Source: Myxococcota bacterium (GTDB lineage: Bacteria > Myxococcota_A > UBA9160 > PR03). Taken from it: DNA of 64,000 nucleotides. The translations under genes were made by a program, and so were the position numbers. Shown piece by piece: positions 11,573 to 30,534 of this stretch (its first letter is position 1; each line of letters begins with the position of its first letter). Location: the NCBI GenBank assembly GCA_035506135.1, contig DATJPY010000044.1:1528-65527 (forward strand). Direction: 5' to 3'. The notes under the pieces were generated by a model, which was given only the letters and a program-made list of their open reading frames with translations, ran no database searches and had not been told where the DNA came from.

Positions 11573-11598
11573 GGAGGCCGACTCTCGAGTCGGCCTCC
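11573..11598. terminator. GC-rich hairpin between convergent genes (candidate bidirectional terminator)
   Basis: ggaggccgac-tctcga-gtcggcctcc has a 10-12 bp perfect stem followed by ttt. It lies between the aldehyde dehydrogenase stop (11528) and the WS/DGAT stop (11601). The T-tract is short. Confidence 0.5.
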
Positions 11599-11600
11599 TT

Positions 11601-13034: not shown

Positions 13035-13089
13035 CGGAGGACCTCCTGCCGCGCGCGGTCCGAGCCGATGCTAGCGCTGCCGGCGGCGG

Positions 13090-13500: not shown

Positions 13501-13503
13501 GGA

Positions 13504-14688
13504 TCAGCGCCCCCGCCGCAGGATCGCGATCGAGCCGTCCCCGAAGTCGCCCCAGCCGGTGACGAGCCCGAGCTCCGCGTCCTTCACCTGGGCGGCGCCC
13601 GCCTCGCCGCGGAGCTGGCGGGTGGCCTCGATCAGGTGATTGATGCCCCAGACGTGCGCCTGGGAGAGCAGGCCGCCGTGCGTGTTCATCGGCAGCTCGC
13701 CGCCGAGCTCGATGCGGCCTCCCTTCACGAAGTCGCCGCTCTCGCCGCGGGCGCAGAGCCCGAGCGCCTCGAGCTGCAGCAGCACGACGTAGGTGAAGCA
13801 GTCGTAGATCTGGAGGAAGTCGACCTCGGACGCGCGGATGCCGGCCATCGCGAGGGCGCGCGGCGCGGCGAAGGAGAGCCCGATGCGGAACGGGTCGCGG
13901 CGCGCCGCGATGTCGTCGGCGGGGTAGGGGTGGCCCTCGGCGGCGGCGACCAGCACCACCGGCGGACGCGCCAGATCGCGCGCCCGCTCGGCGCTCGTCA
14001 CCAGCACGGCGCCCGCGCCGTCCGTCTCGAGGCAGCAGTCGTAGAGCCGGAACGGCTCCGAGATCCAGCGCGCGGACAGGTACTGCTGCAGCGTGAGCGG
14101 GCGCCCCCGCATCAGCGCGCGCGGGTTGTGCTGGGCGTGGGCGCGGCACGCCAGCGCCACGGCGCCCATCGATTCCGGCTCGATTCCGTACATCTTCATG
14201 TGTCGCGTCGCCAGCCAGGCGTAGAACTGTACCGGCGAGACGGCGCCGTACGGCAGGTAGAAGTCCCGTACCGTATGGGTCATGGCGTTCAGGCCGAGCG
14301 GCGACCGCCGCGGGCGCGCGCCCGGCTTCGGGCGGATCGCGCTGTAGCCGTTCCAGCCGAGCACGATCAGCACGTGGCGCGCGACGCCGGTCGCCACCGC
14401 CATGGCCGCGCTCTGCAGCGCCGCGGTCGGGCTTGCGCCACCCATGCTCACGGTCGCGGCGTAGCGCAGCTCCTCGATCCCGAGGTTCGCGGCGAGCTCC
14501 TCGGCGGTGGTCTCGATGGGCGGCGGGACGAGGCCGTCGACGTCGCGCGGCGAGAGGCCCGCGTCGGCGATGGCGCCGCGCGCGGCCTCGAGCATGAGCT
14601 GGGCCGCGCTGCGGTCGGAGCCGCGGACGTAGTCGGTCTCGCCGATCCCGGCGATGGCGGCGCGCTCGCGGATCGAGGACTCGCTCAC
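13504..14688 (-). CDS. SCP-x/Ltp-type thiolase-like protein
   Basis: C-terminal 394 aa of ORF 13504..16827, from GTG 14688 (GTGA overlap with the hydrolase stop). Sequence: [64 protein letters not shown]. Confidence 0.85.
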
Positions 14689-15572
14689 GAGGGGCGCCCC
14701 AGCTCGCGCAGGAATGCGAGCACCGCGTCGGTGAAGCGGTCGTTGCGGTCCCCGGCGACCATGTGTCCGGCGCCGCGCACGTCGACGAACCGGGCCTTCG
14801 GCGCGAGCTCGAGGAAGTGCCGCGCGCCCTGCTCGGAGAGGAGGTCCGAGAGCCGGCCGCGCACGAGCAGCGTCGGGACGCGCAGCCGGCGCGCGGCGGC
14901 CTCCATGCGATCGCCCTCCTGGCCCGGCCGCGGCCCGTGTCCCGGCTGCAGGAAGAGGGGATCCCAATGCCAGCGCCAGCGCCCGTCGTCGCCGCGGCGC
15001 AGGTTCTTCGCGAGCCCCGAGAGATCGCTCGGCCGCTCGCGGTGCGGCAGGTAGGCGGCGACCGCGTCGGCGGCCTCGTCGAGGCTTGCGAAGCCCTCGG
15101 GCCGTGCCTGCATGAAGGAGATGATCCGCATCGCGCCCTCGGGCTCGATGCGCACCGCGATGTCGACCAGGACGAGCGCGCGGCTGATCGAGCGCTCCGA
15201 CTCTGCCTCGGCGAGCAGCGCGGTGATGCCGCCGAGCGACGCGCCCACCAGCACCGGCGGCGCGGTGAGCTGCGCAACCACCGCGCGCAGGTCCGCGACG
15301 AAGGCGTCGACGCTGTAATCGCCGCGCGCGTCCCAGCCGCTGTCGCCGTGGCCGCGCAGGTCGAGCGCGACGGCGTACCAGCCCTCGCGCGCGAGCGCGG
15401 CGGCCGTGCCGCCCCACGCGTGGCGCGTCTGACCGCCGCCGTGGAGCAGCAGAACGGGCGGCGCTGAGGGATCTCCCCACGCGTCGGCGTGGAGCGCGAG
15501 GCCGTCGCGCCCGGCGAGCTCCCACCGCGCGACCGGCGGGTCGCTCGGGGACTGCGGGCTGGGCTCGGCCAT
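14685..15572 (-). CDS. alpha/beta-fold hydrolase
   Basis: ATG 15572 (GAGGAG upstream) within ORF 14685..15668. Oxyanion motif [13 protein letters not shown] and nucleophile elbow GASLGG. Confidence 0.85.
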
Positions 15573-15648: not shown

Positions 15649-16467
15649 ATGGGAAGGCTCGACAGCAAGGTGGCGCTGGTGACGGGCGGCGCGAGCGGGA
15701 TCGGCGCGGCAACGGTGCGGCGCTTCGCGCGCGAAGGCGCGCGCGTCGTGATCGTGGATCTGCAGGACGCACTCGGCGAGGCGCTCGCCGAGGAGCTCGG
15801 AGCCGCGACCGTCTACCAGCGCGCCGATGTGTCGCGCGAGGCGGACGTCGTCGCCGCCGTCGACCGCGCCGTCGACCAGTTCGGGCGGCTCGACGTCTGC
15901 TTCAACAATGCCGGGCTCGGGGGCGTCACCGGTCCGATCGCCGAGATCCCGGCGGCCGAGTTCGATACGACCGTGGGCGTGCTGCTGCGCGGTGTCTTCC
16001 TCGGGATCAAGCACGCGGCGCGCGTGATGCTGCCGCAGCGCGCGGGCAGCATCCTGAGCACCGCGAGCGTCGCGGGCCTGCAGGCCGGCTTCGGCCCGCA
16101 CGTCTACAGCGCCTGCAAGGCGGCCGTCGTGCACCTGACCCGATCGGTGGCGATGGAGCTCGGCGAGCGCGGCGTTCGCGTGAACTGCATCTGCCCCGGC
16201 GGCATCGTGACCCCCCTCCTTACCCGCGGCTTCGCGGGCATGGCGGGCGGCGAGGATCTCGTGAAGGGCTTCCTCGCGTCCGCACAACCGATCCGCCGCG
16301 CCGGACTTCCGGACGACATCGCGGAGGCTGCTCTGTTTCTGGCGAGCGACGCGTCGAGCTTCGTGAACGGGCACGCGCTCGTGGTGGACGGCGGCCTCAC
16401 CGGCGGGCGCCAGTGGTCGACGATGCCGGAGGCGATCCGCACCTACCGGCCCGAGGGCGGCCCCTGA
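15649..16467 (+). CDS. SDR family oxidoreductase
   Basis: ATG 15649 within ORF 15571..16467. Motifs: [26 protein letters not shown]. Confidence 0.9.
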
Positions 16468-16515
16468 TGCGGTAACGTCCCGGGCGGGGGAAGTCGGCGC
16501 CTCGAGAGGATTCAC

Positions 16516-17748
16516 ATGTCCCAGGCCTTCCCGCCGCCCGGCGCGTTCCCGCCTCCGCAGCTCCTCGCCGACCCGTATCCCTTCTACGCCGCGCTCCGCG
16601 CGAGCCAGCCGGTGTTCCGCCTGCCGGTGGGCGAGAGCAGCGCTCCCGGGGTCTGGCTGCTCACGCGGCACGCGGACGTCCACGCCGTGCTGCGCGACGC
16701 GCGCTTCTCGGCCGATCGCCGCCGCGCGCGCATCGTCCGCGAGAACATCGACCGGCTCGCGATCGGCATGGCGCTCGGCGAGGAAGGCGGGCTGCGCACC
16801 ATGCTGGTCATGGACCCGCCCGATCACACCCGCGTGCGCGGCCTGGTGAGCAAGGCCTTCACCCCGCGCCGCGTCGCCGCCCTGCGCCCGCGCATCGAGC
16901 AGATCATCGACGAGCTGCTCGCCGAGCCGGCGGCGCGCGGATCGATGGACGTGATGGCGGACTTCGCCGCGCCGCTGCCGGCGATCGTGATCGCCGAGCT
17001 GCTAGGCGTGCCGGCCGAGGACCACCGCGAGTTCCGGCAGTGGTCGAGCGAGCTGGTCTCGCTCGTGGGCTCCGCCAATCCACTGGAGATCCGCGAGCGG
17101 TTCGAGAAGGCGCTCGGCCGCATCCTCGACTACCTGCGCGGCGTGATCGCCGAGCGGCGGCGCGCGCCGGCCGACGACCTGATCAGCGGCATGATCGAGG
17201 CGCAGGAGGAGCGCGACGCGCTCTCCGACGTCGAGCTGCTCGCCACCAGCAACCTGCTGCTGCTCGCGGGCCACGAGACCACCACCAACCTGATCGGCAA
17301 CGGCACGCTCGCGCTGCTGCGGCACCCCGACGAGCTCGCGCGCCTGCGCGCCGACCACGCGCTCCTGCCGGACGCGATCGAGGAGCTGCTGCGCTACGAC
17401 AGCCCCGTACAGGCGACCGTGCGCGTCGCGACGCAGGACGCCGAGGTCGGCGGCCAGAAGATCCCGGCCGAGGCGCTGGTCATCGTGGGGATCGGGGCGG
17501 CGAACCGCGACCCCGCGGTCTTCCGCGACCCGGATCGCCTCGACCTCGCGCGCGGCGGCAACCACCACCTCTCGTTCGGTCTCGGCGTGCACTTCTGCCT
17601 CGGCGCGTCGCTGGCGCGCCTCGAGGCCGAGCTCGCCTTCGGTGCGCTGCTCGAGCGCTTCCCACGCCTCGACCTCGCCACCGAAGCGGTCTCGCATCGC
17701 GCGAACCTGATCCTGCGCGGGCTCACCGCGCTGCCGGTGCGCTGCTGA
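16516..17748 (+). CDS. cytochrome P450
   Basis: ORF 16516..17748. I-helix [18 protein letters not shown] (ExxR), and heme loop [15 protein letters not shown]. No ferredoxin or reductase gene is adjacent. Confidence 0.95.
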
Positions 17749-17800
17749 GCGAGGCCGGAGGCGCGGGCTCCACTCCAGGGCTTCCGAGGAAGAGGCTGCG

Positions 17801-19270
17801 ATGAGCCCGATCGACCTCGTGATTCGCGGCGCGACCCTCTACGACGGGACGGGTGCTCCACCGCGTCGCGCCGACGTCGCACTGGCCGGCGATCGGATCG
17901 CAGCGGTCGGTGATCTCCCCGCGCCTGCCGACGCGCGCGACCTCGACGCGCGCGGCCTCGCGCTCGCGCCGGGCTTCATCGACGTCCACACGCACGACGA
18001 CTTCGCCGCCGTCCTCCACCCCGCGATGGGATTCAAGGTGCAGGGGGGCGTCACCACCGTGGTGGTCGGCAACTGTGGGATGAGCGCCGCGCCGTGGGGC
18101 GTCGCGCGGGCGATGGCGCAGGCGTTCCATCCCGGCGCCGCGCTGCCCGCGTGGGAGGGCTTCGCCGGCTACCTCGCCCACCTCGATGCGGAGCCGGCGA
18201 GCTGCAACGTGGCCGCGCTGGTCGGGCACGGCACCGCGCGCGCGGCGGCGATGGGCGGCGACGCGCGCGCGCCGACGCGCGCCGAGCTCGATCGGATGCG
18301 CGGCATCGTGCGCGAGGGGCTCGAGGCCGGCTGCTTCGGCCTGTCGACGGGGCTCGTCTACGAGCCCGGCCGCCACGCCGCGACCGACGAGATCGTGGCG
18401 CTCGCGCGCGTGCTCGCGGGAAGCGGCGCGCTCTACGCCACGCACATGCGCGACGAGGGGAGCGGGCTCCTCGACTCGGTGCAGGAGGCGATCGAGATCG
18501 GCGAGCGCGCCGGCGTGCCGGTGCAGATCTCGCACCACAAGGCGGCGGGTCGCGAGGCGTGGGGCCTCGTGCGCGAGTCCCTGCGGATGATCGAGCAGGC
18601 GCGCGCGCGCGGGCTCGACGTGACCGCCGATCAGTATCCCTACACCGCGGGAAGTACGGTGCTGGCCGCGGTCGTGGCCAACGCCGAGCGCTTCGGGCGC
18701 GCCGACGAGGCGGCGGTGGTGATCGCGTCGGCGCCCGGCCACCCCGCGTGGGAGGGCCGCTCGCTGGCGGAGCTCGGAGCGGCGTGGGACATGCCCGGGA
18801 TCGAGGCCGCCCGGCGTATCCTCGACGCGGAGGGGTTCTCGGCGACCGTGGTCATGCACAGCATGGACGAGGGCGACGTGCAGACGGTGATGCGTCACCC
18901 GACCACGATGATCGGCTCGGACGGGATCCCGACGCTGGCGGGCAAGCCGCACCCGCGGCTCTACGGGACCTTCGCGCGCGTGCTCGGCCACTACGCGCGC
19001 GACCTCGGCCTCTTCCCGCTCGAGGAGGCGGTCCACCGCATGACCGGGCTCGCGGCGCGCAAGTTCGGGATGCGCGACCGCGGGGTGGTGCGCGAGCAGG
19101 CCTTCGCCGATCTCGTGCTCTTCGACCCGGACGGGATCGCCGACGTGGCGACTTACGCGGATCCGCACCATCCGCCGGCCGGGGTCGAGCGCGTCTGGGT
19201 GAACGGGGTGTGCGTCGTCGAGCGTGGCGCGCACACGGGGGCCCGGCCTGGTCGCGCGTTGCGGCGCTGA
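17801..19270 (+). CDS. N-acyl-D-amino-acid deacylase (D-aminoacylase) family amidohydrolase
   Basis: ORF 17801..19270. Sequence: DLVIRGATLYDGTG..APGFIDVHTHDD..ATHMRDEG..QISHHK. Confidence 0.85.
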   Translation: MSPIDLVIRGATLYDGTGAPPRRADVALAGDRIAAVGDLPAPADARDLDARGLALAPGFIDVHTHDDFAAVLHPAMGFKVQGGVTTVVVGNCGMSAAPWGVARAMAQAFHPGAALPAWEGFAGYLAHLDAEPASCNVAALVGHGTARAAAMGGDARAPTRAELDRMRGIVREGLEAGCFGLSTGLVYEPGRHAATDEIVALARVLAGSGALYATHMRDEGSGLLDSVQEAIEIGERAGVPVQISHHKAAGREAWGLVRESLRMIEQARARGLDVTADQYPYTAGSTVLAAVVANAERFGRADEAAVVIASAPGHPAWEGRSLAELGAAWDMPGIEAARRILDAEGFSATVVMHSMDEGDVQTVMRHPTTMIGSDGIPTLAGKPHPRLYGTFARVLGHYARDLGLFPLEEAVHRMTGLAARKFGMRDRGVVREQAFADLVLFDPDGIADVATYADPHHPPAGVERVWVNGVCVVERGAHTGARPGRALRR

Positions 19271-19310
19271 CCCGGTCGCGCCCGCTCTCTCGACGCCCTG
19301 CGCGCCGATC

Positions 19311-19326
19311 TGTAACGTGTTTCAAA
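19311..19326 (+). promoter_or_regulatory. AT-rich element TGTAACGTGTTTCAAA upstream of the SDR/LLM operon (CRP/FNR-like half-sites TGTAA-N6-TCAAA, or a promoter element)
   Basis: This is the only AT-rich stretch in the 71-nt gap 19271-19341. It ends 4 nt before the AGGAGG of the gene starting at 19342. Each half-site matches TGTGA-N6-TCACA at 4 of 5 positions. Confidence 0.25.
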
Positions 19327-19341
19327 TCCGAGGAGGCGAGC

Positions 19342-20106
19342 ATGGGCGGTGGACTGGTCGACGGCAAGGCCGCGCTCGTGACGGGCGGCGCCTCCGGGAT
19401 CGGTCGCGCCACGGCGCTCGCACTCGCTCGCGAGGGCGCGCGCGTGCTGGTGGCGGACCGCGATGCCGCCGGCGCCGAGGCGGTGGCGAAGGCGATCTCC
19501 GAGTCGCGCGGGACGGCGCGCGCCGTGCGCTGCGACGTGGCCCGGGCGGACGAGGTCGAGGCCATGGTGCGGGCCGCCCTCGACGCCTTCGGCCGACTCG
19601 ATTGCGCGGTGAACGCCGCCGGGATCCTCGGCGCACCGGGCCCGCTGCACGAGCTCGCACCCGAGCAGTGGGAGCAGACGCTGGCGGTGAACCTGACGGG
19701 CATGTTCCTGTGCCTGCGGTACGAGCTCCGCGCGATGCGCGCGCAGCGAGCCGGCGCCATCGTCAACGTGTCGTCGGGGGCCGGCGTGCTGGGCACGCCC
19801 TTCCTCGGCCCCTACGCCGCCTCGAAGCACGGCATCCTCGGTCTCACCAAGACGGCGGCGCTCGAGAACGCGCGCGACGGCGTGCGCGTGAACGCGATCT
19901 GCCCCGGGTCGACCGACACGCCGATGCTGCAGGGCTTCATGGCGAGCTCGGCGGAGGCGCGCAAGATGATCCTCGCCACGGCGCCGAGCGGCCGGCTCGG
20001 CACGCCGGAGGAGATCGCCGAGGCAGCGCTCTGGCTGTGCTCCGACCGCGCCTCCTACGTGAGCGGAGAATCGATGCTGGTCGACTTCGCCGCGGTGTCG
20101 CGCTGA
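19342..20106 (+). CDS. SDR family oxidoreductase (FabG-like)
   Basis: ATG 19342 with AGGAGG upstream. Motifs: [26 protein letters not shown]. Confidence 0.9.
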   Translation: MGGGLVDGKAALVTGGASGIGRATALALAREGARVLVADRDAAGAEAVAKAISESRGTARAVRCDVARADEVEAMVRAALDAFGRLDCAVNAAGILGAPGPLHELAPEQWEQTLAVNLTGMFLCLRYELRAMRAQRAGAIVNVSSGAGVLGTPFLGPYAASKHGILGLTKTAALENARDGVRVNAICPGSTDTPMLQGFMASSAEARKMILATAPSGRLGTPEEIAEAALWLCSDRASYVSGESMLVDFAAVSR

Positions 20107-20120
20107 GGGGACCGGTCGAG

Positions 20121-20987
20121 GTGAAGTTCGTCGTCCCCACCGCCTTCAGCCCGCCGGCGCACTTCTGCGCCATGGCCCGCGCGGCCGAGGAGGCCGGCTG
20201 GGACGCGATCGCCATCTCCGACCACGTGGCGCATCCCGAGCGCATCACGTCGCCCTATCCCTACACGAAGGACGGATCGATCCGGTGGACCGAGTCGACG
20301 GCATGGCCGGACCCCTGGGTCTCGATCGGCGCGATGGCCGCCGCGACCTCGCGCCTGCACTTCGTGACGAACATCTTCGTCCTGGCGCTGCGCAACCCGT
20401 TCCTCGCCGCCAAGGCCATCGCCACCGCTGCGGCGCTCTCGGAGGATCGCGTGGCCGTCGGCGTCGGGGTCGGCTGGATGCGGGAGGAGTTCGAGCTCGC
20501 CGGGCAGGACTTCGCCACGCGCGGCCGCCGCACCGACGAGATGATCGAGGTGATGCGGAAGCTCTGGAGCGGCGGCTACGTCGAGCACCGCGGCCGCTTC
20601 TACGAGTTCGGACGCGTGCGCATGCTGCCCGCGCCCGGCGCGCCCGTGCCGATCTACGGCGGCGGCCTGTCGGAGCCGGCGCTGCGGCGCGCGGCGCGTC
20701 TCGACGGCTGGATCTCGGACATCCACAGCACCGCGGAGCTGCGCGACATCGCGGCCGTGCTGCGCCGCCATCGGGCCGAGCAGGGGCGGGCGGATGCGCC
20801 CTTCGCGCTGGTGGCGGCGTGCTCGGACGCCTTCGACGCCGACGGGATCCGCCGGCTCGCGGATGCGGGCGTGACGCACTACGCGACGGCGCCGTGGCTC
20901 TTCTACGGCGGCTCGTGGGATTCGCTTCAGGACAAGGTCGACGGCATGCGGCGCTTCGCGGACCAGGTGATCGCGAAGCTGCGCTGA
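20121..20987 (+). CDS. LLM class (luciferase-like) F420/flavin-dependent oxidoreductase
   Basis: GTG 20121 in the frame of ORF 19224..20987. Sequence: VKFVVPTAFSPP..AEEAGWDAIAISDHV..RVAVGVGVGWMREEFE..EVMRKLWSG. Confidence 0.8.
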   Translation: MKFVVPTAFSPPAHFCAMARAAEEAGWDAIAISDHVAHPERITSPYPYTKDGSIRWTESTAWPDPWVSIGAMAAATSRLHFVTNIFVLALRNPFLAAKAIATAAALSEDRVAVGVGVGWMREEFELAGQDFATRGRRTDEMIEVMRKLWSGGYVEHRGRFYEFGRVRMLPAPGAPVPIYGGGLSEPALRRAARLDGWISDIHSTAELRDIAAVLRRHRAEQGRADAPFALVAACSDAFDADGIRRLADAGVTHYATAPWLFYGGSWDSLQDKVDGMRRFADQVIAKLR

Positions 20988-20997
20988 AGGGGGTCGG

Positions 20998-21747
20998 ATG
21001 CGCCGGTTCGAGGACAAGGTGGTGCTGATCACGGGCGCGGCGTCCGGGATCGGGCGCGCCTGCGCGCTCAAGCTGGCCGAGGAGGGTGCTCGGCTCGCGC
21101 TCGGGGACGTGCAGGCCGAGGGGCTCGAGGCGACCGCCAAGCAGGTGCGCGAGCTCGGCGCCGCGTGCGAGACGCAGTTCGCGGACGTCGCCGACGAGGC
21201 CTCGGTGCGCGCGCTCGTCTCCGGCGCGGCGTCCCACTACGGCCGGCTCGACGTGCTGTGCAACGTGGCCGGCATCCTGCGCTTCGATCACACCCACGAG
21301 CTCGCGCTCGCCGACTGGAGCCGCGTCCTCGCCGTGAACCTGACGGGGACCTTCCTGATGTGCCGCGAGGCGATCCCGCACCTGCTCGCCGCGCGCGGGA
21401 ACGTGATCAACATCGCCTCGACCGCAGGGCTGCGCGGGCATCCGTGGACGGCGGCCTACTCGGCGTCGAAGGGCGGCGTGATCGCGCTCACCTGCGGCAT
21501 CGCGATCGAGTACGCGAAGCAGGGCCTGCGCGCCAACGCGATCTGCCCGGGCAGCATCGAGACGCCGATCACGCAGGCCTTCCAGGTGCCGTCGGGCGCC
21601 GACCCCAAGCTGGTTCGCCGCATGATGCCGATCACCGGATTCGCCGGGCCCGAGAAGGTGGCGACGGCGGTCGCCTTCCTGGCGTCGGACGAGGCCTCGC
21701 ACATCACGGGCGAGACGCTCCGCATCGACGGCGGAGCGCTGTCGTGA
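20998..21747 (+). CDS. SDR family oxidoreductase
   Basis: ORF 20998..21747. Motifs: KVVLITGAASGIGRA, NVAG, YSASKGG. Confidence 0.9.
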   Translation: MRRFEDKVVLITGAASGIGRACALKLAEEGARLALGDVQAEGLEATAKQVRELGAACETQFADVADEASVRALVSGAASHYGRLDVLCNVAGILRFDHTHELALADWSRVLAVNLTGTFLMCREAIPHLLAARGNVINIASTAGLRGHPWTAAYSASKGGVIALTCGIAIEYAKQGLRANAICPGSIETPITQAFQVPSGADPKLVRRMMPITGFAGPEKVATAVAFLASDEASHITGETLRIDGGALS

Positions 21748-22529
21748 GCGGTCTGCTCGGCGGACGCGTCGCGATCGTCTCCGGCATCGGGCCCGGCATG
21801 GGGCGCGACATCTCGCTCGCGCTCGCGCGCGAGGGCGCCGACCTGGTGCTGGCGGCGCGCACCGAGGCGAAGCTCGCCGAGGTGGCCGCGGAGGTCCGCG
21901 CGGCGGGCCGGCGCGCGCTGGCCGTGCCCGCCGACATCACCCGGCCCGAGGATTGCCAGCGGCTGGTCGAGCGCGCGCGCGGCGAGCACGGCCGCATCGA
22001 CGTGCTCGTGAACAACGCCTTCCAGATGGGCGGCTTCGTGCCGCTCGAGCGGGCGACCGCCGACGACTGGCGCCGCCCGATCGAGGTCAATCTGATCGGC
22101 TCGATGCAGCTCACGCGCGAGGTGATCCCGGTGATGAAGGCGCAGGGCCGGGGCTCGATCGTGATGATCAACTCGATGGTGGTGCGCGACGTCCTCCCCC
22201 AGATGGGCACCTACGCCGCCTCGAAGGCCGCCCTGCTCGCGGCGACGCAGGGGCTGGCGCGCGAGCTCGGCGGCGGGGGCATCCGCGTCAACTCGGTGGT
22301 GCCGGGCTACATCTGGGGGCCCTCGCTGCAGGCGTACTTCGCGCATCAGGCGAAGCAGCGCGGCGTCGACGCGCAGGTGGTCTACGACGAGGTCGCCGCC
22401 CAGACCGCGTTGCACCACATCCCGACGTCCGAGGAGATCGCCGACGCCGTCGTGTTCTTCGCCTCCGACCTGTCGCGCGTCATCACCGGCCAATCGCTCG
22501 ACGTGAACGGCGGCCACGTGTTCCACTGA
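21744..22529 (+). CDS. SDR family oxidoreductase
   Basis: GTG 21744 (GTGA overlap). Motifs: RVAIVSGIGPGMGRD, NNAF, YAASKAA. Confidence 0.85.
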   Translation: MSGLLGGRVAIVSGIGPGMGRDISLALAREGADLVLAARTEAKLAEVAAEVRAAGRRALAVPADITRPEDCQRLVERARGEHGRIDVLVNNAFQMGGFVPLERATADDWRRPIEVNLIGSMQLTREVIPVMKAQGRGSIVMINSMVVRDVLPQMGTYAASKAALLAATQGLARELGGGGIRVNSVVPGYIWGPSLQAYFAHQAKQRGVDAQVVYDEVAAQTALHHIPTSEEIADAVVFFASDLSRVITGQSLDVNGGHVFH

Positions 22530-23323
22530 TGGCGATGCTGGACGGCCAGCGCGCAATCGTCACCGGCGGCGCCTCGGGGATCGGGCTGGCGACGGCGCGG
22601 CGCATGCTCGAGGCCGGCGCACGCGTCGCGCTGGTCGACGTCGACGCCGAGAAGGTCGAGGCGGCCGGGCGCGAGCTCCGCGCGCCGGCCTTTGTCGCCG
22701 ACGTCGCCGACGCCGCCGCGCTCGACGCCGCCTTCGCGGCCGCGGCCGACGCGATGGGCGGGCTCTCGATCCTCTTCAACAATGCCGGGGCGGGGCAGGT
22801 CTCGCCGCTCCACCGCTATGCGCCCGAGGCGGTCGAGCGGCTGCTCGACGTGAACCTGATCGGGGTCTACAACGGCCTGCGCGCGGCGATCCCGCGCATG
22901 CTGGAGGGTGGAGGGGGCGCGATCGTCAACAACGCCTCCGGCAGCGGCGTACAGCCGACGCGCGGCGAGGCGCCGTACTCGGCGGCCAAGGCCGGCGTGA
23001 TCGCGCTCACCCGGAGCGCGGCGCTCGAGTACGGCCCGCGCATCCGGGTCAACTGCGTGTCGCCGGGCGTCGTCCGCACGCCCCTGTCCGAGGCGCTCTT
23101 CCGCGTGCCGCGGCTGCTCGATCCGCTGCTCGAGGCCATCCCGGCGGGCCGCACCGGCACGCCCGAGGACGTCGCCGACGTGGTCGTCTTCCTGTGCTCG
23201 CCCGGGGCGGGATTCGTGACCGGCCAGAACCTCCTGATCGACGGCGGGCTCTCGCTGGTCGGCGGCGGCATCGATCGGGTGCTGCGCGAGATGATGGCGG
23301 CGATGGAGCGGCGCCGGGTTTGA
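22529..23323 (+). CDS. SDR family oxidoreductase
   Basis: ATG 22529 (TGATG junction). Motifs: [25 protein letters not shown]. Confidence 0.9.
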   Translation: MAMLDGQRAIVTGGASGIGLATARRMLEAGARVALVDVDAEKVEAAGRELRAPAFVADVADAAALDAAFAAAADAMGGLSILFNNAGAGQVSPLHRYAPEAVERLLDVNLIGVYNGLRAAIPRMLEGGGGAIVNNASGSGVQPTRGEAPYSAAKAGVIALTRSAALEYGPRIRVNCVSPGVVRTPLSEALFRVPRLLDPLLEAIPAGRTGTPEDVADVVVFLCSPGAGFVTGQNLLIDGGLSLVGGGIDRVLREMMAAMERRRV

Positions 23324-23355
23324 CGGCCCCGGGGCCGCGGGATACGAAGCCTCCC

Positions 23356-24534
23356 ATGTCCGACGCTGCCTTCGACGCGCTCGAGGTCGGGCGCCTGCGC
23401 CGCCGGCGCGGCGAGAAGTGGGCGCTCTACGGCCCGGACGTCCTGCCGGCCTGGGTCGCCGAGATGGACTTCCCGCTGGCGGAGCCGGTGCGGCGCGCGG
23501 TCGAGCAGGCGCTCTCGCTCGACGACCTCGGCTATCCGCTGCACCCGCGGCCGAACGAGCTGCCCGCGCTCTTCGCCGAGCGGATGCAGGCGCGCTTCGG
23601 CTGGCGGCCGGACCCACATCGGGTCGAGGTGATCGCGGACGTCGTGCAGGGGATCTACGTCGCGCTGACCCAGCTCGCGGCGCCCGGCGAGGGCGTCGTG
23701 GTCCAGACGCCGATCTATCCGCCGTTCCTCGAGGCGGTCGCCGAGACCGGGCGCCGGCTCGTCGAGAATCCGCTTGCTCGGACGGGTCGTTACGAGATCG
23801 ACCTCGAGCAGCTCCGCAGCGCGCTCGATCCGCACACGCGAATCCTGCTCCTGTGCAACCCGCACAACCCGAGCGGCCGCGTGCTCGAGCGCCGCGAGCT
23901 CGAGGCGCTCGCCGAGATCGCGCTCGCGCAGCGCCTCGTGGTGGTGGCCGACGAGATCCACGCCGACCTGGTGCATGGGCCGCGCCGCCACGTTCCGTTC
24001 GCGTCGCTCGGCCCCGAGGTGGAGACGCGCACGGTCACGCTGACCTCGGCGACCAAGGCCTTCAACATCCCGGGGCTGCGCTGCGCGGTCGCCCACTTCG
24101 GCAGCGGCGAGCTGCACCACCGCTTCCTCGGCGTGCCGCGGGCCGCGCGCGGCGGGCTCGGCGCGCTCGGCCAGGCCGCGACGCTGGCGGCCTGGCGCGA
24201 GGGCGAGCCCTGGCTGGAGCGCGTGCTGGCCTATCTCGCCGGCAACCGGGACCGCGTGGCGCGCTTCGTCGCCGAGCGACTGCCGGGCGTCGTGCACGTC
24301 GCGCCCGAGGCGTCCTACCTGGCCTGGCTCGACTGCACGGCCCTCCAGCTCGAACCGACGCCCCAGCGCTTCTTCCTGGCGCACGCGCGCGTGGCGCTCT
24401 CTCCCGGCGAGAGCTTCGGGCGACCGGGCGCCGGCTTCGCGCGGCTCAACTTCGGCACCTCGCGCGCGATCCTGGACGAGATCCTCGAGCGCCTCGCCGG
24501 CGCGCTGCGCGGGCGTGATAGGATCCGCGCGTGA
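23356..24534 (+). CDS. MalY/PatB-type PLP aminotransferase-fold C-S beta-lyase
   Basis: ATG 23356 in the frame of ORF 23194..24534. Sequence: [41 protein letters not shown]-lysine context [13 protein letters not shown]. Confidence 0.8.
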
Positions 24535-25742
24535 GCCTCTGCATCCGCGATCCCGAGCTGTTCGGCGTGACGGCGACGAGCGCGACGCTCTGCTTTCGCG
24601 TCGAGGACGGTGCGGGCTCCGTCGAGGCACCGGCGCGCATCCGGCTCGACGGCGAGGTGCGGGCCGTGTCGGAGGGATCCGGGACGCGCCACGTCCGCCT
24701 CGAGGGGCTCGAGCCCGACACGCGCTACCGGATCGACGTCGAGATCGACGGCGCGGAGCCGATCGCAGCCGATCGCTACTTCCCCGAGGCGCTGCGCACG
24801 CTGCCCGCTCCGCGAGCAGCCTGCACGGCGCGCTTTGCGACGATGAACGACCTCCACTTCGGCGAGCCGCGCTTCGGAGGGAGGCTCACCGAGGACCACG
24901 AGTACGGCGACGAGGAGCCGGGCTTTCCGCTGATCCGCGCCGAGGACACCGAGGTGCCCTACTGGCGCAGCATGAACGACGACGCGATCGCCGAGATCAA
25001 CGCGGCCGGCGTCGACGCCGCCGTGATCAAGGGCGACATCGCCGACCGCGGACGGCCCGAGCAGTTCGGCTGGGCGCGCGAGTCCTTCGCCCGGCTGCGC
25101 GCGCCGCACCACGCCTTCCTCGGCAACCACGACTACTACGGGCGCCAGGAAGGCCACTCGGTCGACGGCTATGCGCTGCTCGGACAGGCGCCCGCGCCGC
25201 GCGTGATCGAGCTCGGCGGCTGGCGCCTGGTGCTGCTGGAGACGGCCGAGCCGGGGGACCACCACGGCGTGTTCGGCGACGATCGGATGGGATGGCTGGC
25301 GCAGACGCTCGCCGGGACGCGCGAGACGAGCACGCCGACGCTCCTGCTGATGCACCACCAGCCGGTCCCGCCCGAGCATCGCGACAGCTACCCGAACACG
25401 ATCGGAATGCTGCCGGAGCACTCGCTTCCCTTCTTCGACCTGATCGGTGCGAACCCGCAGGTAAAGGGGGTCCTGATCGGGCACACGCACCGCAATCGCG
25501 TCCGCCGCTATCGCGCCTCCGGCGCGGCGCCGTTCGTCGAGGTGAACTGCACGAAGGACTACCCGGGAGGCTGGGCGCACTACGAGCTCTTCGAGGACGG
25601 CAGCTTCCGGCAGGAGGTGCGCCGCACGGCGAGCCCGCGCGCGCTGGCGCATTCGACCCGCTGCCGCGAGTGCTTCCGGGGCTTCTATCGGGACTTCGCG
25701 CTCGGCTCGCTCGAGGAGCGGAGCTTCGTCGCGGGTGGCTGA
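24531..25742 (+). CDS. calcineurin-like metallophosphoesterase with N-terminal beta-sandwich
   Basis: ORF 24531..25742 (GTG start, GTGA overlap). Motifs: [34 protein letters not shown]. Confidence 0.85.
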
Positions 25743-27129
25743 CCTCGACCCGACCGCGGCGTCTGCGAGCGCATTGGCCCGCGCCGTTCGCGAGCGCCGC
25801 GTGTCGTCGGCCGAGCTGGTCGACGCCTGCCTGGCGCGCATCGAGCGCGTCAACCCCGCGCTGAACGCGGTCGTGGCGGTGTGTCCGGAGCGGGCGCGCC
25901 GCGAGGCCGAGGTCGCCGACGCCGAGGTCGCGCGCGGCGCCCTGCGCGGCCCGCTGCACGGCGTGCCGATCACGATCAAGGACTCGCTCGACGTCGCCGG
26001 GCTGGTGTCGACCTGGGGCACGCGCGGGCGCGCGGGCTTCGTGCCCGCGGCGGACGCGACGGTGGTCGCACGGCTGCGCGCTGCCGGCGCGATCGCGCTC
26101 GGGAAGACCAACACGCCCGAGCTGACGATGGGGTTCGAGACGAACAACCGGGTCTACGGTCGCACCCGCAACCCGTACGATCCGGCGCGCACGCCGGGCG
26201 GCAGCAGCGGGGGCGCCGCGGCCATCGTTGCGGCCGGCGGCGCGCCGCTGGACCTCGGGAGCGACACGGGCGGCAGCATCCGGCTGCCGGCGCACTTCTG
26301 CGGTGTCGCGGGCCTGCGCCCCACCAGCGGGCGCGTCCCGCGCACCGGTCACGCGATCGGGCCCGGAGGCGCCGCCGACGCGCTGACGCAGATCGGCCCG
26401 ATCGCGCGGCGGGTCGAGGACCTCGCGTTGGCGCTGCGGCTGATCGCCGGACCGGACGGGTGCGATCCCTTCGTCGCACCGGTTCCGCTCGGCGATCCGA
26501 CCGGCGTCGAGCTCTCGGGCCTGCGCGTGGCGCTCCTGGTCGACAACGGCATCGCAAAGCCGGATCCCGCCGTGGAGGCCACCGTGCGCGCCGCCGCCGG
26601 CGCGCTTGCCGAGGCGGGCGCGCGGGTCGAGGAGCGCCGGCTCCCGGGTATCGAGGAGACGCTCGATCTCTTCATGCGCGTGGTCGTGATCGACGGCGGC
26701 ATCGACATCCGCCAGCTCCTCGCTCGATGCGGCACCGCGCTCGAGGAGAGCCCGCTCGCCGGCCTCGCGCAGCTCCCTGCGCCGTCGGGCGACGAGCGGG
26801 TGCGGATCGTCGCGCGGTGGGACGCCCTCCGCGCGCGGCTCCTCGCGTGGACGCAGGACTGGGACCTCGTCGTCTCGCCGGCGAACGCGCACGCCGCGCT
26901 CCGGCACGGCGAGAGCGACGCGCGCATCCCGGCCTTCAGCTACACCATGACGTGGAACCTCGCGGGCTGGCCTTGTGTCGTGGTGCGCGCGGGCTCGTCG
27001 CCCGAAGGACTGCCGATCGGCGCGCAGCTCGTGGCGCCGCCGTGGCGCGAGGACGTGGCTCTGGCCGCCGCCGCGCGCGTGGAGGCGGTGCTCGGCGGCT
27101 GGCGGCCGCCCGCGCAAGGGCCGGGATGA
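25735..27129 (+). CDS. amidase-signature (AS) family amidase
   Basis: ORF 25735..27129. Sequence: [43 protein letters not shown]. 8-nt overlap with the upstream gene. Confidence 0.9.
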
Positions 27130-27578
27130 GCCCGCTCGCGCGGCTCTCGCTCTGGGCGATGGGCGCGTTCTACCTGCTCGCGGGTCTCAACCATTTTCGA
27201 GATCCGGCGTTCTATCTGCCTATGATGCCGACGTACCTCCCGGCCCACCGGGAGCTGGTGGAGCTCTCCGGGGTTGCCGAGTTCGCGCTCGGGCTCGCGC
27301 TGCTGGTGGTCGGCGCCGCGGCTCCGCGGCTGCGCCGCGCGGCCGCTTGGGGCGTGATCGCGCTGCTGCTGGCGATCTTCCCCGCGAACCTCCACGTCGC
27401 CCTGCACGACGTCCCGATCGGCGGGCGCAGCGAGGGCCTCGGCGTCTGGAACTGGGTGCGGCTTCCTTTCCAGGCCGTGCTGATCGCCTGGGCGTGGCTC
27501 TACACGCGGCGCCCACCGGCGCAGGGACCCAGCCCGCGCGCCCTGCGCGGTGCACCGGCCGAGCCGGCGGCGGAATGA
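27126..27578 (+). CDS. DoxX-like small integral membrane protein
   Basis: ATG 27126 (ATGA overlap). It has four hydrophobic segments: LWAMGAFYLLAGLNHF..ELSGVAEFALGLALLV..WGVIALLLAIFPANLHVAL. Confidence 0.7.
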   Translation: MSPLARLSLWAMGAFYLLAGLNHFRDPAFYLPMMPTYLPAHRELVELSGVAEFALGLALLVVGAAAPRLRRAAAWGVIALLLAIFPANLHVALHDVPIGGRSEGLGVWNWVRLPFQAVLIAWAWLYTRRPPAQGPSPRALRGAPAEPAAE

Positions 27579-28423
27579 GCGAGCGCTTCGTCGTCGTAAC
27601 CGGCGCGTCGACCGGCATCGGGCGCACCACGGCGCTCGGCCTCGACCGCGAGGGCTATCGCGTGTTCGCCGGCGTGCGGCGCGCGCAGGACGCCGACACG
27701 CTCAAGGCCGACGCCTCCCCGCGCCTGACGCCGCTCTCGCTCGACGTGACCGACGCCGCGAGCCGCGAGGCGGCGGTGCGACGGGTCGCGGAGGCGGCCG
27801 GCGGGGAGGGGCTCCACGGCCTCGTCAACAACGCGGGCATCGTCGTCGCCAGTCCGGTCGAATTCCTCGATCTCGGCGCGCTGCGGCGGCAGCTCGAGGT
27901 GAACGTGGTGGGCCTGGTCGCCGTGACGCAGGCGTTCCTCCCGCTGCTGCGCGCGGCCCGCGGGCGAATCGTGCACATCGGCTCCTCGAGCGGCTACATC
28001 GCCGCGCCGCTGATGGCGCCCTATTCCGCATCGAAGTATGCCGTCGAGGCCATCGCCGACGCGATGCGCCGCGAGCTGGCAGGCTCGGGTGTCGCCGTAT
28101 CCCTGGTCGAGCCCGGGGCGATCGCGACCCCGATCTGGGACAAGGGTGTCGAGATGGGCGACGAGCTGGTGAGGACACTCCCGCCGCAGGCCATCGATTT
28201 CTACGGCGAGCGCATCGAGCGACTCCGGGCCTACGCGCGGAAGGCGCCCGCGCAGGCGATCCCGCCCGAGCGCGTCGCCGAGGCCGTGCGCCACGCCCTC
28301 GCGGCGCCGCGCCCTCGCACGCGCTATCGGGTGGGCGCCGACGCCAGGAGCGGCTGGTGGCTCTCGCGCCTGCTTCCCGATCGAGCCATGGACTGGCTGC
28401 TCGAGCGCCTGACGCAAGCCTAG
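27575..28423 (+). CDS. SDR family oxidoreductase (classical, with C-terminal extension)
   Basis: ATG 27575 (ATGA overlap). Motifs: RFVVVTGASTGIGRT, NNAG, YSASKYA. Confidence 0.9.
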   Translation: MSERFVVVTGASTGIGRTTALGLDREGYRVFAGVRRAQDADTLKADASPRLTPLSLDVTDAASREAAVRRVAEAAGGEGLHGLVNNAGIVVASPVEFLDLGALRRQLEVNVVGLVAVTQAFLPLLRAARGRIVHIGSSSGYIAAPLMAPYSASKYAVEAIADAMRRELAGSGVAVSLVEPGAIATPIWDKGVEMGDELVRTLPPQAIDFYGERIERLRAYARKAPAQAIPPERVAEAVRHALAAPRPRTRYRVGADARSGWWLSRLLPDRAMDWLLERLTQA

Positions 28424-29778
28424 GCGGCCCTTCGCACCGCGTCGTCGATCGCGCGCGGGAGCGCGCTGGCGATGAGATCGATCTCCTCCGGCTCGATCGT
28501 GAAGGGCGGCCCGAGCACGAGGACGTCGCGCGCGGCGCCCGACCCACCCGGGTAGAAGAAGACGCCGTGTCCGAGGCCGGCCCCGACCGCGCGTGCGGTG
28601 ACGTGCGCCTCGCTCGGGAATGGCTCGCGCGTGGCGCGGTCGCGCACCAGCTCGACGCCGATCAGGAGCCCGAGGCCCCTCACCTCGGCGACATGCGGAT
28701 GCGTTGCGAGCGCCTCGCGCAGCCGCCCCAGCAGCTCCTCGCCGACGCGCGCCGCGCGCTCGACGAGCGCCTCCCGCTCGAGGATGTCGAGCACGGCGAG
28801 GGAGGCGGCACAGGCCGCCGGGTGGGCGCCGTAGGTGAAGAACATGAAGTCGTCCCCGCGCGCGGCGATCGGAGCCATCACCTCCTCGCGCGCGAACACG
28901 CCGCCCATCGGCGCGTAGCCGCCCGTGAGCCCCTTGCCGCCGACCAGGATGTCGGGCACGACGCCCCAGTGATCGACGGCAAAGCGCCGCCCGGTGCGCC
29001 CGAAGCCGGTCATCACCTCGTCGGCGATCAGGAGGACGCCGTGCCGGCGGCAGATCTCGGCCAGGCGCGGCCAGTAGTCGTCGGGCGGCACGAGCGCGCC
29101 CGCCGTCGAGCCGACCACCGGCTCCGCGATCACCGCCGCCACGCTCTCGGGTCCTTCGGCGACGATCCGCTCCTCGATCGCGTCCACGCACGCGACGCCG
29201 CAGCCGGGGCGCTCGAGGCCGAGCGGGCAGCGCAGGCAGTAGCACGCCGGCGCCTTCGGGAGATCGAGCAGGAGCGGGTCGAGGCCCGCGCGGCGCTTGG
29301 CGTGTGCGCCGACCGCGAGCGCCGCGAGCGTGGCGCCGTGATACGAGAGGTCGCGCCCCAGGATCTTCCAGCGCTCCGCGTGCCCCGCCGCGACGTGGTG
29401 TTGGCGTGCGAGGCGGATGGCGGCGTCGACCGATTCGGAGCCGCCGCTGGTGAGCGCAACCCGCGAGAGCCCCGGCGGCAGCCAGCGGTCGACGAGGCGC
29501 TCCACCAGCGCGACGCGTTCCTCGGTGGCGAAGGGCGGCACGACGTAGTCGATGCGCTCGAGCGCGCTCGCCATCGCCCGAGCCACCTCGGCCCGCCCGT
29601 GCCCGACGTTGGCGACGATCGCCCCTCCCGCGGCGTCGAGGATGCGCCGGCCGTCGGGGAGGATCAGCCACGCGCCCTCGGTACGCGCCACCGCCAGCGG
29701 TGCCGCGGCGCCGGGCACGAAGGCGAAGCGGCGGGCGCGCCCCGGGTCCGCGGCAGCGTGGGTGACGGGACCGGCCAC
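28420..29778 (-). CDS. class III (omega-type) PLP aminotransferase
   Basis: GTG 29778 in the frame of ORF 28420..30315. Sequence: TSGGSESVD..LIADEVMTGFGRTG..VGGKGLTGGYAPMG, with the Cys-rich insert CYCLRCPLGLERPGCGVAC seen in this subfamily. The start codon is uncertain. Confidence 0.85.
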   Translation of the reverse strand: MAGPVTHAAADPGRARRFAFVPGAAAPLAVARTEGAWLILPDGRRILDAAGGAIVANVGHGRAEVARAMASALERIDYVVPPFATEERVALVERLVDRWLPPGLSRVALTSGGSESVDAAIRLARQHHVAAGHAERWKILGRDLSYHGATLAALAVGAHAKRRAGLDPLLLDLPKAPACYCLRCPLGLERPGCGVACVDAIEERIVAEGPESVAAVIAEPVVGSTAGALVPPDDYWPRLAEICRRHGVLLIADEVMTGFGRTGRRFAVDHWGVVPDILVGGKGLTGGYAPMGGVFAREEVMAPIAARGDDFMFFTYGAHPAACAASLAVLDILEREALVERAARVGEELLGRLREALATHPHVAEVRGLGLLIGVELVRDRATREPFPSEAHVTARAVGAGLGHGVFFYPGGSGAARDVLVLGPPFTIEPEEIDLIASALPRAIDDAVRRAA

Positions 29779-29826: not shown

Positions 29827-30534
29827 TTGAGCGAGGGCACGGCGCGGCGGCGGCAGCTGGTGGAGCGGGTCCCGCTGTTCGCGCGGCTCGCTCCGGCCCA
29901 GCTCGACACGCTGACCAGCGTCACCACGACCCGCCGGCTCGCCGCGCGCGAGGAGCTGTTCCACAAGGGCGACCCGGCGGCGCAGGTCTACGTCGTCGCG
30001 AGCGGCCGTCTCAAGGTCGCGACCACGTCGACCCGCGGCGACGACGTGACCTTCAACCTGCTCGGCGAGGGCGAGGTCGTGGGCGAGCTCCCGCTGCTCA
30101 CTGGCGGGCGCCGAACCGGAACGGTGTCGGCTCTCGAGCCGAGCGAGCTGCTCGTGCTCGAGCGGCGCGACTTCCTGCGCTTCCTGCGCGAGCAGCCCGA
30201 GGCTGCGAGCGCGCTGCTGGTCGTGCTGGCGGAGCGCCTGGTGCGCATCAGCGAGTTCGTCGAGGACACCATCTTCCTGAAGCTGCCGGCGCGCCTGGCG
30301 AAGAAGCTCCTGCACCTCGCCGAGAGCTACGGCGAGGAGGGCCAGGATGGCACGCTGCTCCAGCTCCGGCTCTCGCAGGGAGAGCTGGCGGACCTGGTCG
30401 GCGCCAGCCGCGAGAGCATCAACAAGCAGATCCGCGCCTGGACGGAGGAGGGCGTGGTGCGCATGGAGCGCGGCTCGATCACGATCCTCCGCCGCGCGAC
30501 CCTCGAGCAGCTCGCGGGGCTGGTCGCGACTTAG
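29827..30534 (+). CDS. Crp/Fnr family transcriptional regulator
   Basis: ORF 29827..30534 (TTG start). cNMP-binding domain: PLFARL..LFHKGDPAAQVYVVASGRLKV..GEGEVVGELPLL. C-terminal HTH: SQGELADLVGASRESINKQIRAW. Confidence 0.9.
   Translation: MSEGTARRRQLVERVPLFARLAPAQLDTLTSVTTTRRLAAREELFHKGDPAAQVYVVASGRLKVATTSTRGDDVTFNLLGEGEVVGELPLLTGGRRTGTVSALEPSELLVLERRDFLRFLREQPEAASALLVVLAERLVRISEFVEDTIFLKLPARLAKKLLHLAESYGEEGQDGTLLQLRLSQGELADLVGASRESINKQIRAWTEEGVVRMERGSITILRRATLEQLAGLVAT

Follow-up and report, generated by a model that had tools for sequence, protein, structure and literature searches.

A conserved nine-gene core within an SDR-rich run of thirteen co-directional genes in an uncultured Myxococcota bacterium

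We analysed a 64,000-nucleotide stretch of a metagenome contig from a Myxococcota bacterium (GTDB lineage Bacteria; Myxococcota_A; UBA9160; PR03; GenBank assembly GCA_035506135.1, contig DATJPY010000044.1, positions 1,528 to 65,527 of the forward strand), referred to here as the window, in which thirteen genes follow one another on the plus strand at 15649–28423 (coordinates are those of the window unless a related locus is named). The run is rich in short-chain dehydrogenases/reductases (SDRs), and a preliminary description made from the sequence alone had taken it to be a single translationally coupled unit and not a random run of paralogues. Comparison with related loci indicates that the run is a composite of a nine-gene core at 19342–27578, an upstream accessory module encoding SDR1, a cytochrome P450 and an N-acyl-D-amino-acid deacylase (D-aminoacylase), and a lineage-specific SDR6 at the downstream end. 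It is very likely that the nine genes form a conserved unit with a conserved upstream element, and our explanation of the whole, which we hold with confidence a little above even, is that this unit is an NAD(P)/F420-linked operon for catabolism or detoxification under the control of a repressor.

All of the components come from well-known families, a repressor-controlled operon of catabolic type is a known architecture, and no current concept is challenged by the finding. What is newest here are the operon boundaries, an invariant candidate operator of KstR/PsrA-like type, a triad of metallophosphoesterase (MPE), SDR and luciferase-like oxidoreductase (LLM) with a link to cyclic-nucleotide-binding proteins, and the history of assembly; a vague SDR-rich run has become a defined nine-gene object in a lineage known only from metagenomes.

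Synteny points to a core of nine genes

Co-directionality alone is weak evidence for an operon in this window because the plus strand carries nearly all genes between 15.6 and 64 kb and overlaps of 4 nt are frequent in every part of the window, and on our comparison it is synteny, rather than co-directionality, that is real support for a unit. Read 5' to 3', the core encodes SDR2 (19342–20106; assigned from Pfam and NCBIfam profiles, with 73–81% identity in the closest relatives), the LLM (20121–20987), SDR3 (20998–21747), SDR4 (21744–22529), SDR5 (22529–23323), a PatB/MalY-type pyridoxal phosphate (PLP)-dependent β C–S lyase (PatB, 23356–24534), the MPE (24531–25742), an amidase-signature amidase (25735–27129), and last a small hydrophobic DoxX/MauE-clan protein which is predicted to be a membrane protein (27126–27578). 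The assignments of SDR3 and SDR5 come from Pfam, NCBIfam and synteny.

The comparison was anchored on the 403-aa MPE, which is the most distinctive protein of the block. A scan of a genome collection gave 41 loci and look-up of exact proteins added others, making approximately 45 related loci in all (numbered here as L006 and so on), and each interval of each locus was assigned to the best-matching window protein. All of these loci are from uncultured metagenome-assembled genomes (MAGs), nearly all of them Myxococcota, with the named ones labelled Myxococcota, Myxococcales or Deltaproteobacteria. The order SDR2–LLM–SDR3–SDR4–SDR5–PatB–MPE–amidase–membrane protein is kept in nine lineages with 64–82% protein identity (the window, L006, L008, L009, L011, L012, L014, L040 and L052), and the SDR3/SDR4 (4 nt), SDR4/SDR5 (1–4 nt) and amidase/membrane protein overlaps recur in the relatives. 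We refer to these relatives, in which the MPE shares 73–80% identity with that of the window, as tier A (L008 is the same as L010; L013, L015, L017 and L046 are partial examples). In tier B (61–70% identity) only MPE–SDR2–LLM is found, in that order, and the usual downstream neighbour is a HEAT-repeat protein of about 1020 aa which also has a cyclic nucleoside monophosphate (cNMP)-binding domain, while in tier C the MPE stands without any other block member beside it.

Relatives may also carry a second LLM, of family TIGR03617 (F420_MSMEG_2256; 461 bits), which is found between SDR5 and PatB in L008 (7752–8771 of that locus), L009, L011, L014, L040 and L052 (8913–9929), usually upstream of the triad in tier B, and in tiers B and C immediately 5' of the MPE. 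The window operon, L006 and L012 lack it. We considered a 335-aa LLM elsewhere in the window (3475–4482, minus strand) as the missing orthologue, and with only 34–40% identity it is a paralogue.

The remaining genes of the run behave differently. SDR1 is found beside the core in the window lineage alone, as is SDR6, for which the sole relative is a 59% identity homologue located 8 kb away in L030. The P450 gene adjoins the deacylase gene in the window lineage and L008 (=L010) only, and a D-aminoacylase gene is found upstream of the core in four of the seven lineages with enough flanking sequence, where in the relatives it is set apart from the core by an EamA gene and a minus-strand gene. We conclude from this distribution that the thirteen-gene run is probably composite, and that 19342–27578, in which the genes share a strand, are separated by no more than 32 nt or overlap, and keep their order, is a predicted operon. 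The single coupled unit proposed earlier therefore stands for these nine genes and not for all thirteen, and the conservation across related MAGs expected for 19342–28423 is seen as far as 27578 and does not extend to SDR6.

The gene calls themselves appear to be sound. The window has approximately 74% G+C, with no shift across the block, and long spurious open reading frames (ORFs) therefore occur in all frames; the gene set was recovered by a third-position GC frame plot and an in-frame check of starts and stops, and these reproduced all thirteen genes and every junction in the preliminary description, with the identities given there borne out by domain searches. The intergenic gaps are 48, 52, 71, 14, 10 and 32 nt, and the overlaps are GTGA at 21744, TGATG at 22529, GTGA at 24531, 8 nt at 25735, and ATGA at 27126 and 27575. 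A metagenome gene call made independently on near-identical contigs from four other samples has the same genes with the exception of the amidase start, which it places at 25801, 66 nt 3' of 25735, turning the 8-nt overlap with the phosphoesterase gene into a 58-nt gap. We have kept 25735 because NCBIfam profiles match the long form from residue 5–10 and the amidases of relatives are 461–463 aa in length and start 1–13 nt past the phosphoesterase stop. In these four samples the block is 99–100% identical, the thirteen genes contain no indel, frameshift or stop, and 80 of the 103 substitutions amongst the strain variants are at third codon positions, indicating that all thirteen genes are under purifying selection.

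A conserved element upstream of the core

Alignment of the sequence 5' of SDR2 in eight lineages showed two invariant blocks in otherwise variable sequence, CTCGACG (19289–19295) and, at a constant distance of 15 nt in all eight, TGTAACGTGTTTCAA (19311–19325), and the same CTCGACG-N15-TGTAACGTGTTTCAA element was found when L052 was examined additionally. It is followed by a GGAGG-type ribosome-binding site and then the SDR2 start codon. The 15-mer is unique in the window (0.04 expected) and occurs once in each tier A locus, always upstream of SDR2, and in no tier B or tier C locus. The spacing fits a sigma-70-type promoter with TCGACG as −35, a 17-nt spacer and TAACGT as −10, and we read the first block as the likely −35 of the core operon promoter. 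The second block contains both the −10-like TAACGT and a 14-bp imperfect palindrome, TGTAAC-GT-GTTTCA (TGTAACGTGTTTCA), which fits the KstR core TnnAACnnGTTnnA exactly and the PsrA box at nine of ten positions. The KstR-type pattern TnnAACnnGTTnnA occurs once in the 64 kb compared with 0.03 occurrences expected, and is nearly absent elsewhere in 612 kb of related loci.

We dropped the reading as a riboswitch or leader structure, as no Rfam family was found in the whole window and the SDR2 leader has an unremarkable RNA fold (z-score 0.56), and the element at 19289–19325 is therefore read as a predicted sigma-70-type promoter overlapped by a predicted KstR/PsrA-type TetR operator. Other readings of the 15-mer were judged by eye and set aside: it lacks the GG and GC dinucleotides of a sigma-54 promoter, is a poor fit to FNR, and although its half-sites match those of CRP at eight of ten positions, its distance of 16 nt to the start codon would be incompatible with activation from −41.5 or −61.5. 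A consensus scan of 14.5–30.6 kb for sigma-70 promoters and terminators gave one promoter-like and two terminator-like sites, no more than in shuffled sequences (2.3 terminators expected), and it missed the conserved element because the hexamers are too degenerate.

The closest parallels are with two TetR-family systems. In Mycobacterium tuberculosis, sites bound by KstR include tgtaac as well as tgaaac half-sites and extend over the −10 (Kendall et al. 2007, PMC1995591), and the KstR-repressed lipid and cholesterol operons of Mycobacterium resemble the present one in the 14-bp palindromic TnnAACnnGTTnnA overlapping the −10, in the TGTAAC and TGAAAC half-sites found in experimentally bound KstR sites, and in being rich in SDR-, P450- and thiolase-like genes. 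They differ in that the present operon is that of a diderm myxobacterium and has no kstR nearby, no core genes for steroid ring or side-chain degradation were seen, and PatB, the phosphodiesterase and the amidase are present only in the unit described here. The PsrA box of Pseudomonas fatty-acid genes has the consensus C/GAAAC-N2-4-GTTTG/C (PMC13104628) and is likewise a palindrome lying across the promoter, where the repressor blocks RNA polymerase as a repressor would here, but no psrA-like gene was identified and the genes controlled are not those of β-oxidation. If a KstR- or PsrA-like repressor does bind this operator, its ligand would point directly to the substrate of the operon.

The TetR gene at the left end of the window (706–1428, minus strand) was considered as the cognate repressor and rejected, since its similarity is at the level of the helix-turn-helix and is not specifically KstR-, FadR- or PsrA-like. 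In relatives, a small minus-strand Ddn/DUF2255-like gene lies across the SDR2 intergenic region, whereas in the window this position is taken by the D-aminoacylase gene on the same strand as the core. Two further observations concern related loci. In L048 a second palindrome of the same type (TGCAACTCGTTTCA, at 14110) lies about 3 kb downstream of a stand-alone tier C MPE and could be a further operator for a regulator of this family, and in L009 repeats in direct and inverted orientation (GGGACGTTCC..., TTGACTTGG... and their complements, at approximately 3300–3500) just upstream of the promoter element look like a small inserted repeat element.

Enzymes of the core

The catalytic motifs are intact in all enzymes of the thirteen-gene block. 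The six SDRs, including the two outside the core, are of the classical type (Pfam E-values of 1e-43 to 1e-67) and all retain Tyr-x3-Lys, with the cofactor motif TG(G/A)(A/S)xGIG in five and the variant SGIGPGMG in SDR4. They share 30–45% pairwise identity and are therefore old paralogues and not recent duplicates. SDR4 belongs to the PRK07890 subfamily (343 bits against a cut-off of 258) and its best PDB match, 3ucx, is itself uncharacterised. The LLM is a member of TIGR03619 (F420_Rv2161c; 211 bits against a cut-off of 167) with remote PDB relatives only; its use of F420 is a prediction, as the F420 dependence of the TIGR03619 family is itself predicted. In the PDB, the matches found for the P450, the LLM, SDR2 and SDR4 are generic and point to no substrate.

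The PatB-family assignment of the C–S lyase follows from its score against TIGR04350 (375 bits against a cut-off of 340), and the predicted protein retains the PLP lysine in SATK, with 5z0q, 6qp3 (PatB) and 9k71 (a Cys-S-conjugate β-lyase) as PDB matches. The amidase (Pfam Amidase, PF01425, 9e-111) has K81, S157 and S181 together with GGSSGG, ITIKDS and GGSIR, and its PDB relatives are urethanases, GatA, NylA and FAAH; it reached no NCBIfam equivalog cut-off. The 150-aa membrane protein had been described as DoxX-like and this needs qualification: the window protein falls below the DoxX threshold (17.9 bits against a Pfam gathering score of 26.3, E 0.0035), its orthologues do match the DoxX/MauE clan (MauE 4.7e-6, DoxX_2 3e-5), and the predicted resemblance is thus at clan level only. 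Its residues 129–150 show no conservation in the relatives, which suggests that the insertion of SDR6 was recent.

The MPE (Pfam Metallophos) represents a family which is large, highly conserved and uncharacterised, with 521 database matches all of about 400 aa, the best 120 of which are all at least 68% identical. Its class-III phosphodiesterase core is preceded by an N-terminal β-sandwich of about 100 aa and followed at the C-terminus by a conserved extension of about 80 aa. The five metal-binding motifs DxH, GDxxDR, GNH[DE], H and GHxH are present, and D107, H109, D169, N199, H200, H275/H276, H318 and H320 are invariant in the family. Foldseek placed the predicted structure (pLDDT 88.6, pTM 0.90) closest to Rv0805 (E 1.8e-13) and GpdQ, followed by purple acid phosphatases which share the N-terminal β-sandwich, and judged by this model the MPE is a member of the metallophosphoesterase superfamily with a class III phosphodiesterase fold. 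Rv0805/Icc/CpdA and GpdQ are its best sequence and structure matches and have the same fold and five motifs, but the identity is only about 21–23%, and the MPE has in addition the purple-acid-phosphatase-type β-sandwich and the C-terminal extension. It also scores far below the equivalog cut-offs for cAMP phosphodiesterases (46 bits against 225 for CpdA, PRK11148, and 59 against 400 for SpdA).

The genes found near the MPE suggest a cyclic-nucleotide substrate. Across 42 related loci, all sixteen ORFs with a cNMP-binding domain are within 5 kb of the MPE (in 320 kb) and none are in the 242 kb farther away, though these occurrences are not phylogenetically independent. At least three architectures are involved, namely a Crp/Fnr regulator, the HEAT-plus-cNMP protein and a Na/H exchanger with a cNMP domain; the HEAT protein of about 1020 aa, with its cNMP domain at the C-terminus, follows the MPE or the triad in ten loci (L007, L016, L018, L020, L021, L028, L030, L033, L043 and L047). 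The MPE may well be a cyclic-nucleotide phosphodiesterase rather than a step in the pathway, and the repeated link between it, an SDR, F420-type LLMs and cNMP proteins is a concrete lead for this family.

Assembly of the core

Parts of the core are also found separately. The MPE–SDR2–LLM triad occurs on its own in L007, L020, L021, L023, L024, L030 and L047, and in L051 a PatB homologue (64% identity) occurs alone at the same chromosomal site in the order thiouracil desulfurase–EamA–PatB–DUF1329–lptA–lptB–rpoN. Other PatB homologues of similar identity are stand-alone genes, and some are fused to DUF7700 (PF24777). These fusions form proteins of 500 aa with an N-terminal DUF7700 and 61–65% identity to PatB (L050 at 10001–11503, protein P0195, and about 30 other clusters) and are found in unrelated contexts. 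Amidase homologues with 59–65% identity similarly stand alone in unrelated contexts, including in a Caldilineaceae MAG, and there is no shared module around the distant amidase homologues (L053–L055) or the DUF7700–PatB gene of L050.

From these distributions, the core is apparently a mosaic into which the triad, three further SDRs, the amidase and the DoxX-like protein were brought from elsewhere, and the tier A operon was probably either built around a resident PatB or pared down to PatB in L051. Such a history lowers our confidence that the nine proteins share one substrate.

Function and alternative explanations

The functional part of our explanation is tentative, and we would put it at rather less than even. 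In it, a TetR-family dimer on the 14-bp palindrome would cover the −10 and start region and occlude the promoter until a small-molecule ligand releases the repressor, giving one polycistronic mRNA with translation coupled through the overlapping stop and start codons. As soluble enzymes, the SDRs and LLM would provide NAD(P)- and F420- or flavin-dependent redox steps, and the amidase and PatB would carry out hydrolysis and β-elimination on a small and probably hydrophobic compound, so that together the products would most likely catabolise or detoxify a small compound bearing alcohol or ketone and amide groups. The MPE, which would have joined the operon with SDR2 and the LLM, may act as a cNMP phosphodiesterase or on a metabolite phosphodiester. 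Predicted F420-type proteins cluster in the core and its relatives (TIGR03619, TIGR03617 and the Ddn/DUF2255-like gene) and are worth checking in the Myxococcota.

Several points weigh against this explanation. The operator assignment draws on eight specified positions plus half-site similarity, and there is no TetR gene within about 10 kb of the operon in any locus. No terminator was detectable between the D-aminoacylase gene and SDR2, and read-through from 15649 is therefore possible; the SDR1–P450–D-aminoacylase genes (15649–19270) and SDR6 may still be co-transcribed with the core in this way in the present genome. We found no literature on F420 in Myxococcota, the core lacks a transporter, CoA ligase or thiol transferase from which a substrate might be guessed, and given the mosaic history there need not be one substrate common to the nine genes. 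The earlier suggestion that no described pathway has this combination of genes agrees with our own literature search, which found none. A bolder version, which we regard as distinctly unlikely, would have here an undescribed F420-linked pathway of an uncultured soil Myxococcota clade, in which a new class-III phosphodiesterase subfamily with a purple-acid-phosphatase-like N-terminal domain works with the SDRs, LLM, amidase and C–S lyase on a phosphodiester- and amide-containing lipid-like metabolite under KstR-like TetR control. If true, this would be the first indication of F420-dependent metabolism in the Myxococcota.

The alternative that survives best, which is possible though we think it unlikely, is that the core is an accreted co-expression unit without a common pathway, in which unrelated genes were inserted around a resident PatB. 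PatB would then be a housekeeping cystathionine or cysteine lyase, the MPE a cAMP/cGMP phosphodiesterase resetting the signal to which the adjacent cNMP-binding proteins respond, and the SDRs and LLM general reductases. The solitary PatB of L051 (between thiouracil desulfurase/EamA and DUF1329–lptAB–rpoN), the stand-alone PatB and amidase homologues, the clustering of cNMP-domain ORFs of three to four architectures around the MPE, and the closeness of the MPE to the structures of Rv0805 and Icc are all consistent with this. However, the order and translational coupling of the genes in nine lineages behind one invariant candidate operator are difficult to account for unless joint expression is under selection, the MPE fails to reach the CpdA and SpdA cut-offs and is still linked to SDR2 and the LLM where there is no cNMP protein nearby, and the cNMP matches carry the phylogenetic dependence noted above.

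An operon for electrophile, quinone or carbonyl stress is improbable. Here the SDRs and F420H2-dependent reductases would detoxify quinones and aldehydes, with PatB and the amidase processing thiol adducts. DoxX proteins have been tied to quinone and thiol stress through MhqP of Bacillus subtilis and DoxX of M. tuberculosis, and the DoxX/MauE-clan match of the membrane protein would suit this role, as would the four SDRs of the core, the one or two F420-type LLMs, the Ddn/F420H2-quinone-reductase-like gene which in relatives is divergent from the same intergenic region, and a TetR-type operator typical of such regulons. Against this, the window lacks the Ddn-like gene at the corresponding position, genes for a glyoxalase, a dioxygenase, a thiol transferase or a thioredoxin-like protein are absent, and the amidase is of the amidase-signature and not the Mca/Bca type, leaving nothing that is diagnostic.

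More improbable still is an operon accessory to steroid or lipid catabolism, within a regulon controlled by a KstR-like repressor. The predicted operator does match the KstR core, both half-sites are known from validated M. tuberculosis sites, and the window contains an Ltp-type thiolase with a ChsH2-type DUF35 protein, an α/β hydrolase, a WS/DGAT, the P450, an enoyl-CoA hydratase and a DUF1295/steroid-reductase-like gene. But no ring-cleavage or side-chain core genes (KshA, KstD, HsaA–D and FadD3 types) were seen in the window or the related loci, the lipid genes of the window are not part of the conserved core and are missing from L006 and L052, the P450 is CYP107-like and not specifically CYP125- or CYP142-like, and known steroid pathways have no place for PatB, the MPE or the amidase.

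Cys-S-conjugates are processed in the mercapturate pathway, by mycothiol and bacillithiol conjugate amidases with C–S lyases, and in LmbE/LmbF-type steps in lincomycin biosynthesis. The core is similar in that an amide hydrolase and a PLP-dependent β C–S lyase are encoded close together, and differs in that the amidase is not of the LmbE/Mca type. The thirteen-gene version of this idea put forward in the preliminary description, with oxidative tailoring followed by mercapturate-like deacylation of an N-acyl-Cys and β-lyase cleavage, can be set aside as very improbable: although the deacylase, amidase and C–S lyase genes are on one strand, the junctions are tight from 19342 onwards and the block is intact in all strains sampled, the deacylase is of a D-specific family and lies outside the conserved unit across the conserved predicted promoter/operator, conservation of the core does not extend to SDR1, the P450 or SDR6, there is no transferase for glutathione, bacillithiol or mycothiol, the amidase has stand-alone homologues, and PatB alone at the same site in L051 reads as a resident backbone gene.

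Accessory and flanking genes

Of the genes which precede the core on the plus strand, the first encodes SDR1 (15649–16467), a classical short-chain dehydrogenase (Pfam adh_short_C2, 3.7e-66), and the second a CYP107/CYP267-like cytochrome P450 (16516–17748; Pfam p450) which retains the Cys-ligand motif and has PksS, TamI, Vdh, EryF and CYP267B1 as top PDB matches. The P450 had been noted as having no ferredoxin partner nearby, and this extends to the full 64 kb, where no ferredoxin-like ORF was found and the motif scan gave matches in spurious frames only.

The third, at 17801–19270, is predicted to encode a true member of the D-aminoacylase family of amidohydrolases, a frequent and separable accessory. 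It can be aligned over its full length with PDB 1m7j, the D-aminoacylase of Alcaligenes faecalis DA1 (E 6e-115), with HTHDD, GNCG, YATHMRDEG, ISHHK and MIGSDG identical and the binuclear-site ligands (HxH, Cys, His, His and Asp) all aligned and identical. Full-length homology and the metal-ligand motifs are also shared with the N-acyl-D-glutamate deacylase 3gip, and the gene differs from that of A. faecalis in being paired with P450 and SDR genes as a movable accessory module.

Downstream of the core, the lineage-specific addition SDR6 (27575–28423, plus strand) is a classical SDR of the PRK06182 type as judged by family profiles. It converges with a class III (omega-type) aminotransferase gene (28420–29778, minus strand; Pfam Aminotran_3), and as the two stop codons overlap at 28420–28423 there is no intergenic room for terminators between them. 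A Crp/Fnr-family regulator with a cNMP-binding domain follows (29827–30534, plus strand); both of these flanking genes had been named in the preliminary description and were recovered by domain search. Orthologues of the aminotransferase (73–77% identity) are found after the core in L006, L008, L009, L011, L012 and L046 and are absent in L052, and the regulator is present in L008, L011, L012 and L017 and absent in L006 and L052. Further 3' are lptC–lptA–lptB–rpoN–ptsN–hprK–rapZ, then PTS EI, metK, secDF, cysS, uvrB, uvrC and comEC, which place the block in the core chromosome of a diderm bacterium.

The 5' side of the run is more variable. Compared with L006 and L052, the window has an extra block at 9466–15572 between the photolyase/desulfurase genes and the operon, encoding a DUF2255 protein (minus strand), an aldehyde dehydrogenase (StyD-like, with 683 bits, which is below the cut-off), and a WS/DGAT, a ChsH2-type DUF35 protein and an Ltp-type thiolase (all minus strand). 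The adjoining minus-strand α/β hydrolase gene is conserved in L006, L014 and L052 (70–74% identity). Before these, a CarH-like MerR/B12-binding regulator (6037–6972, minus strand; its 155 bits fall short of the CarH model cut-off) is divergent from a DNA photolyase gene (7016–8482) which overlaps a 2-thiouracil desulfurase/DUF1722 gene (8445–9452). This set looks like a light-response module, and the photolyase–desulfurase pair is also found upstream of the operon in L006 and L052. At the left edge, a truncated PQQ-dependent dehydrogenase (2–709) is followed by the region 706–2664, in which the TetR gene mentioned above is divergent from a diaminopropionate ammonia-lyase gene (PRK08206, 349 bits against a cut-off of 276) and then an enoyl-CoA hydratase gene.

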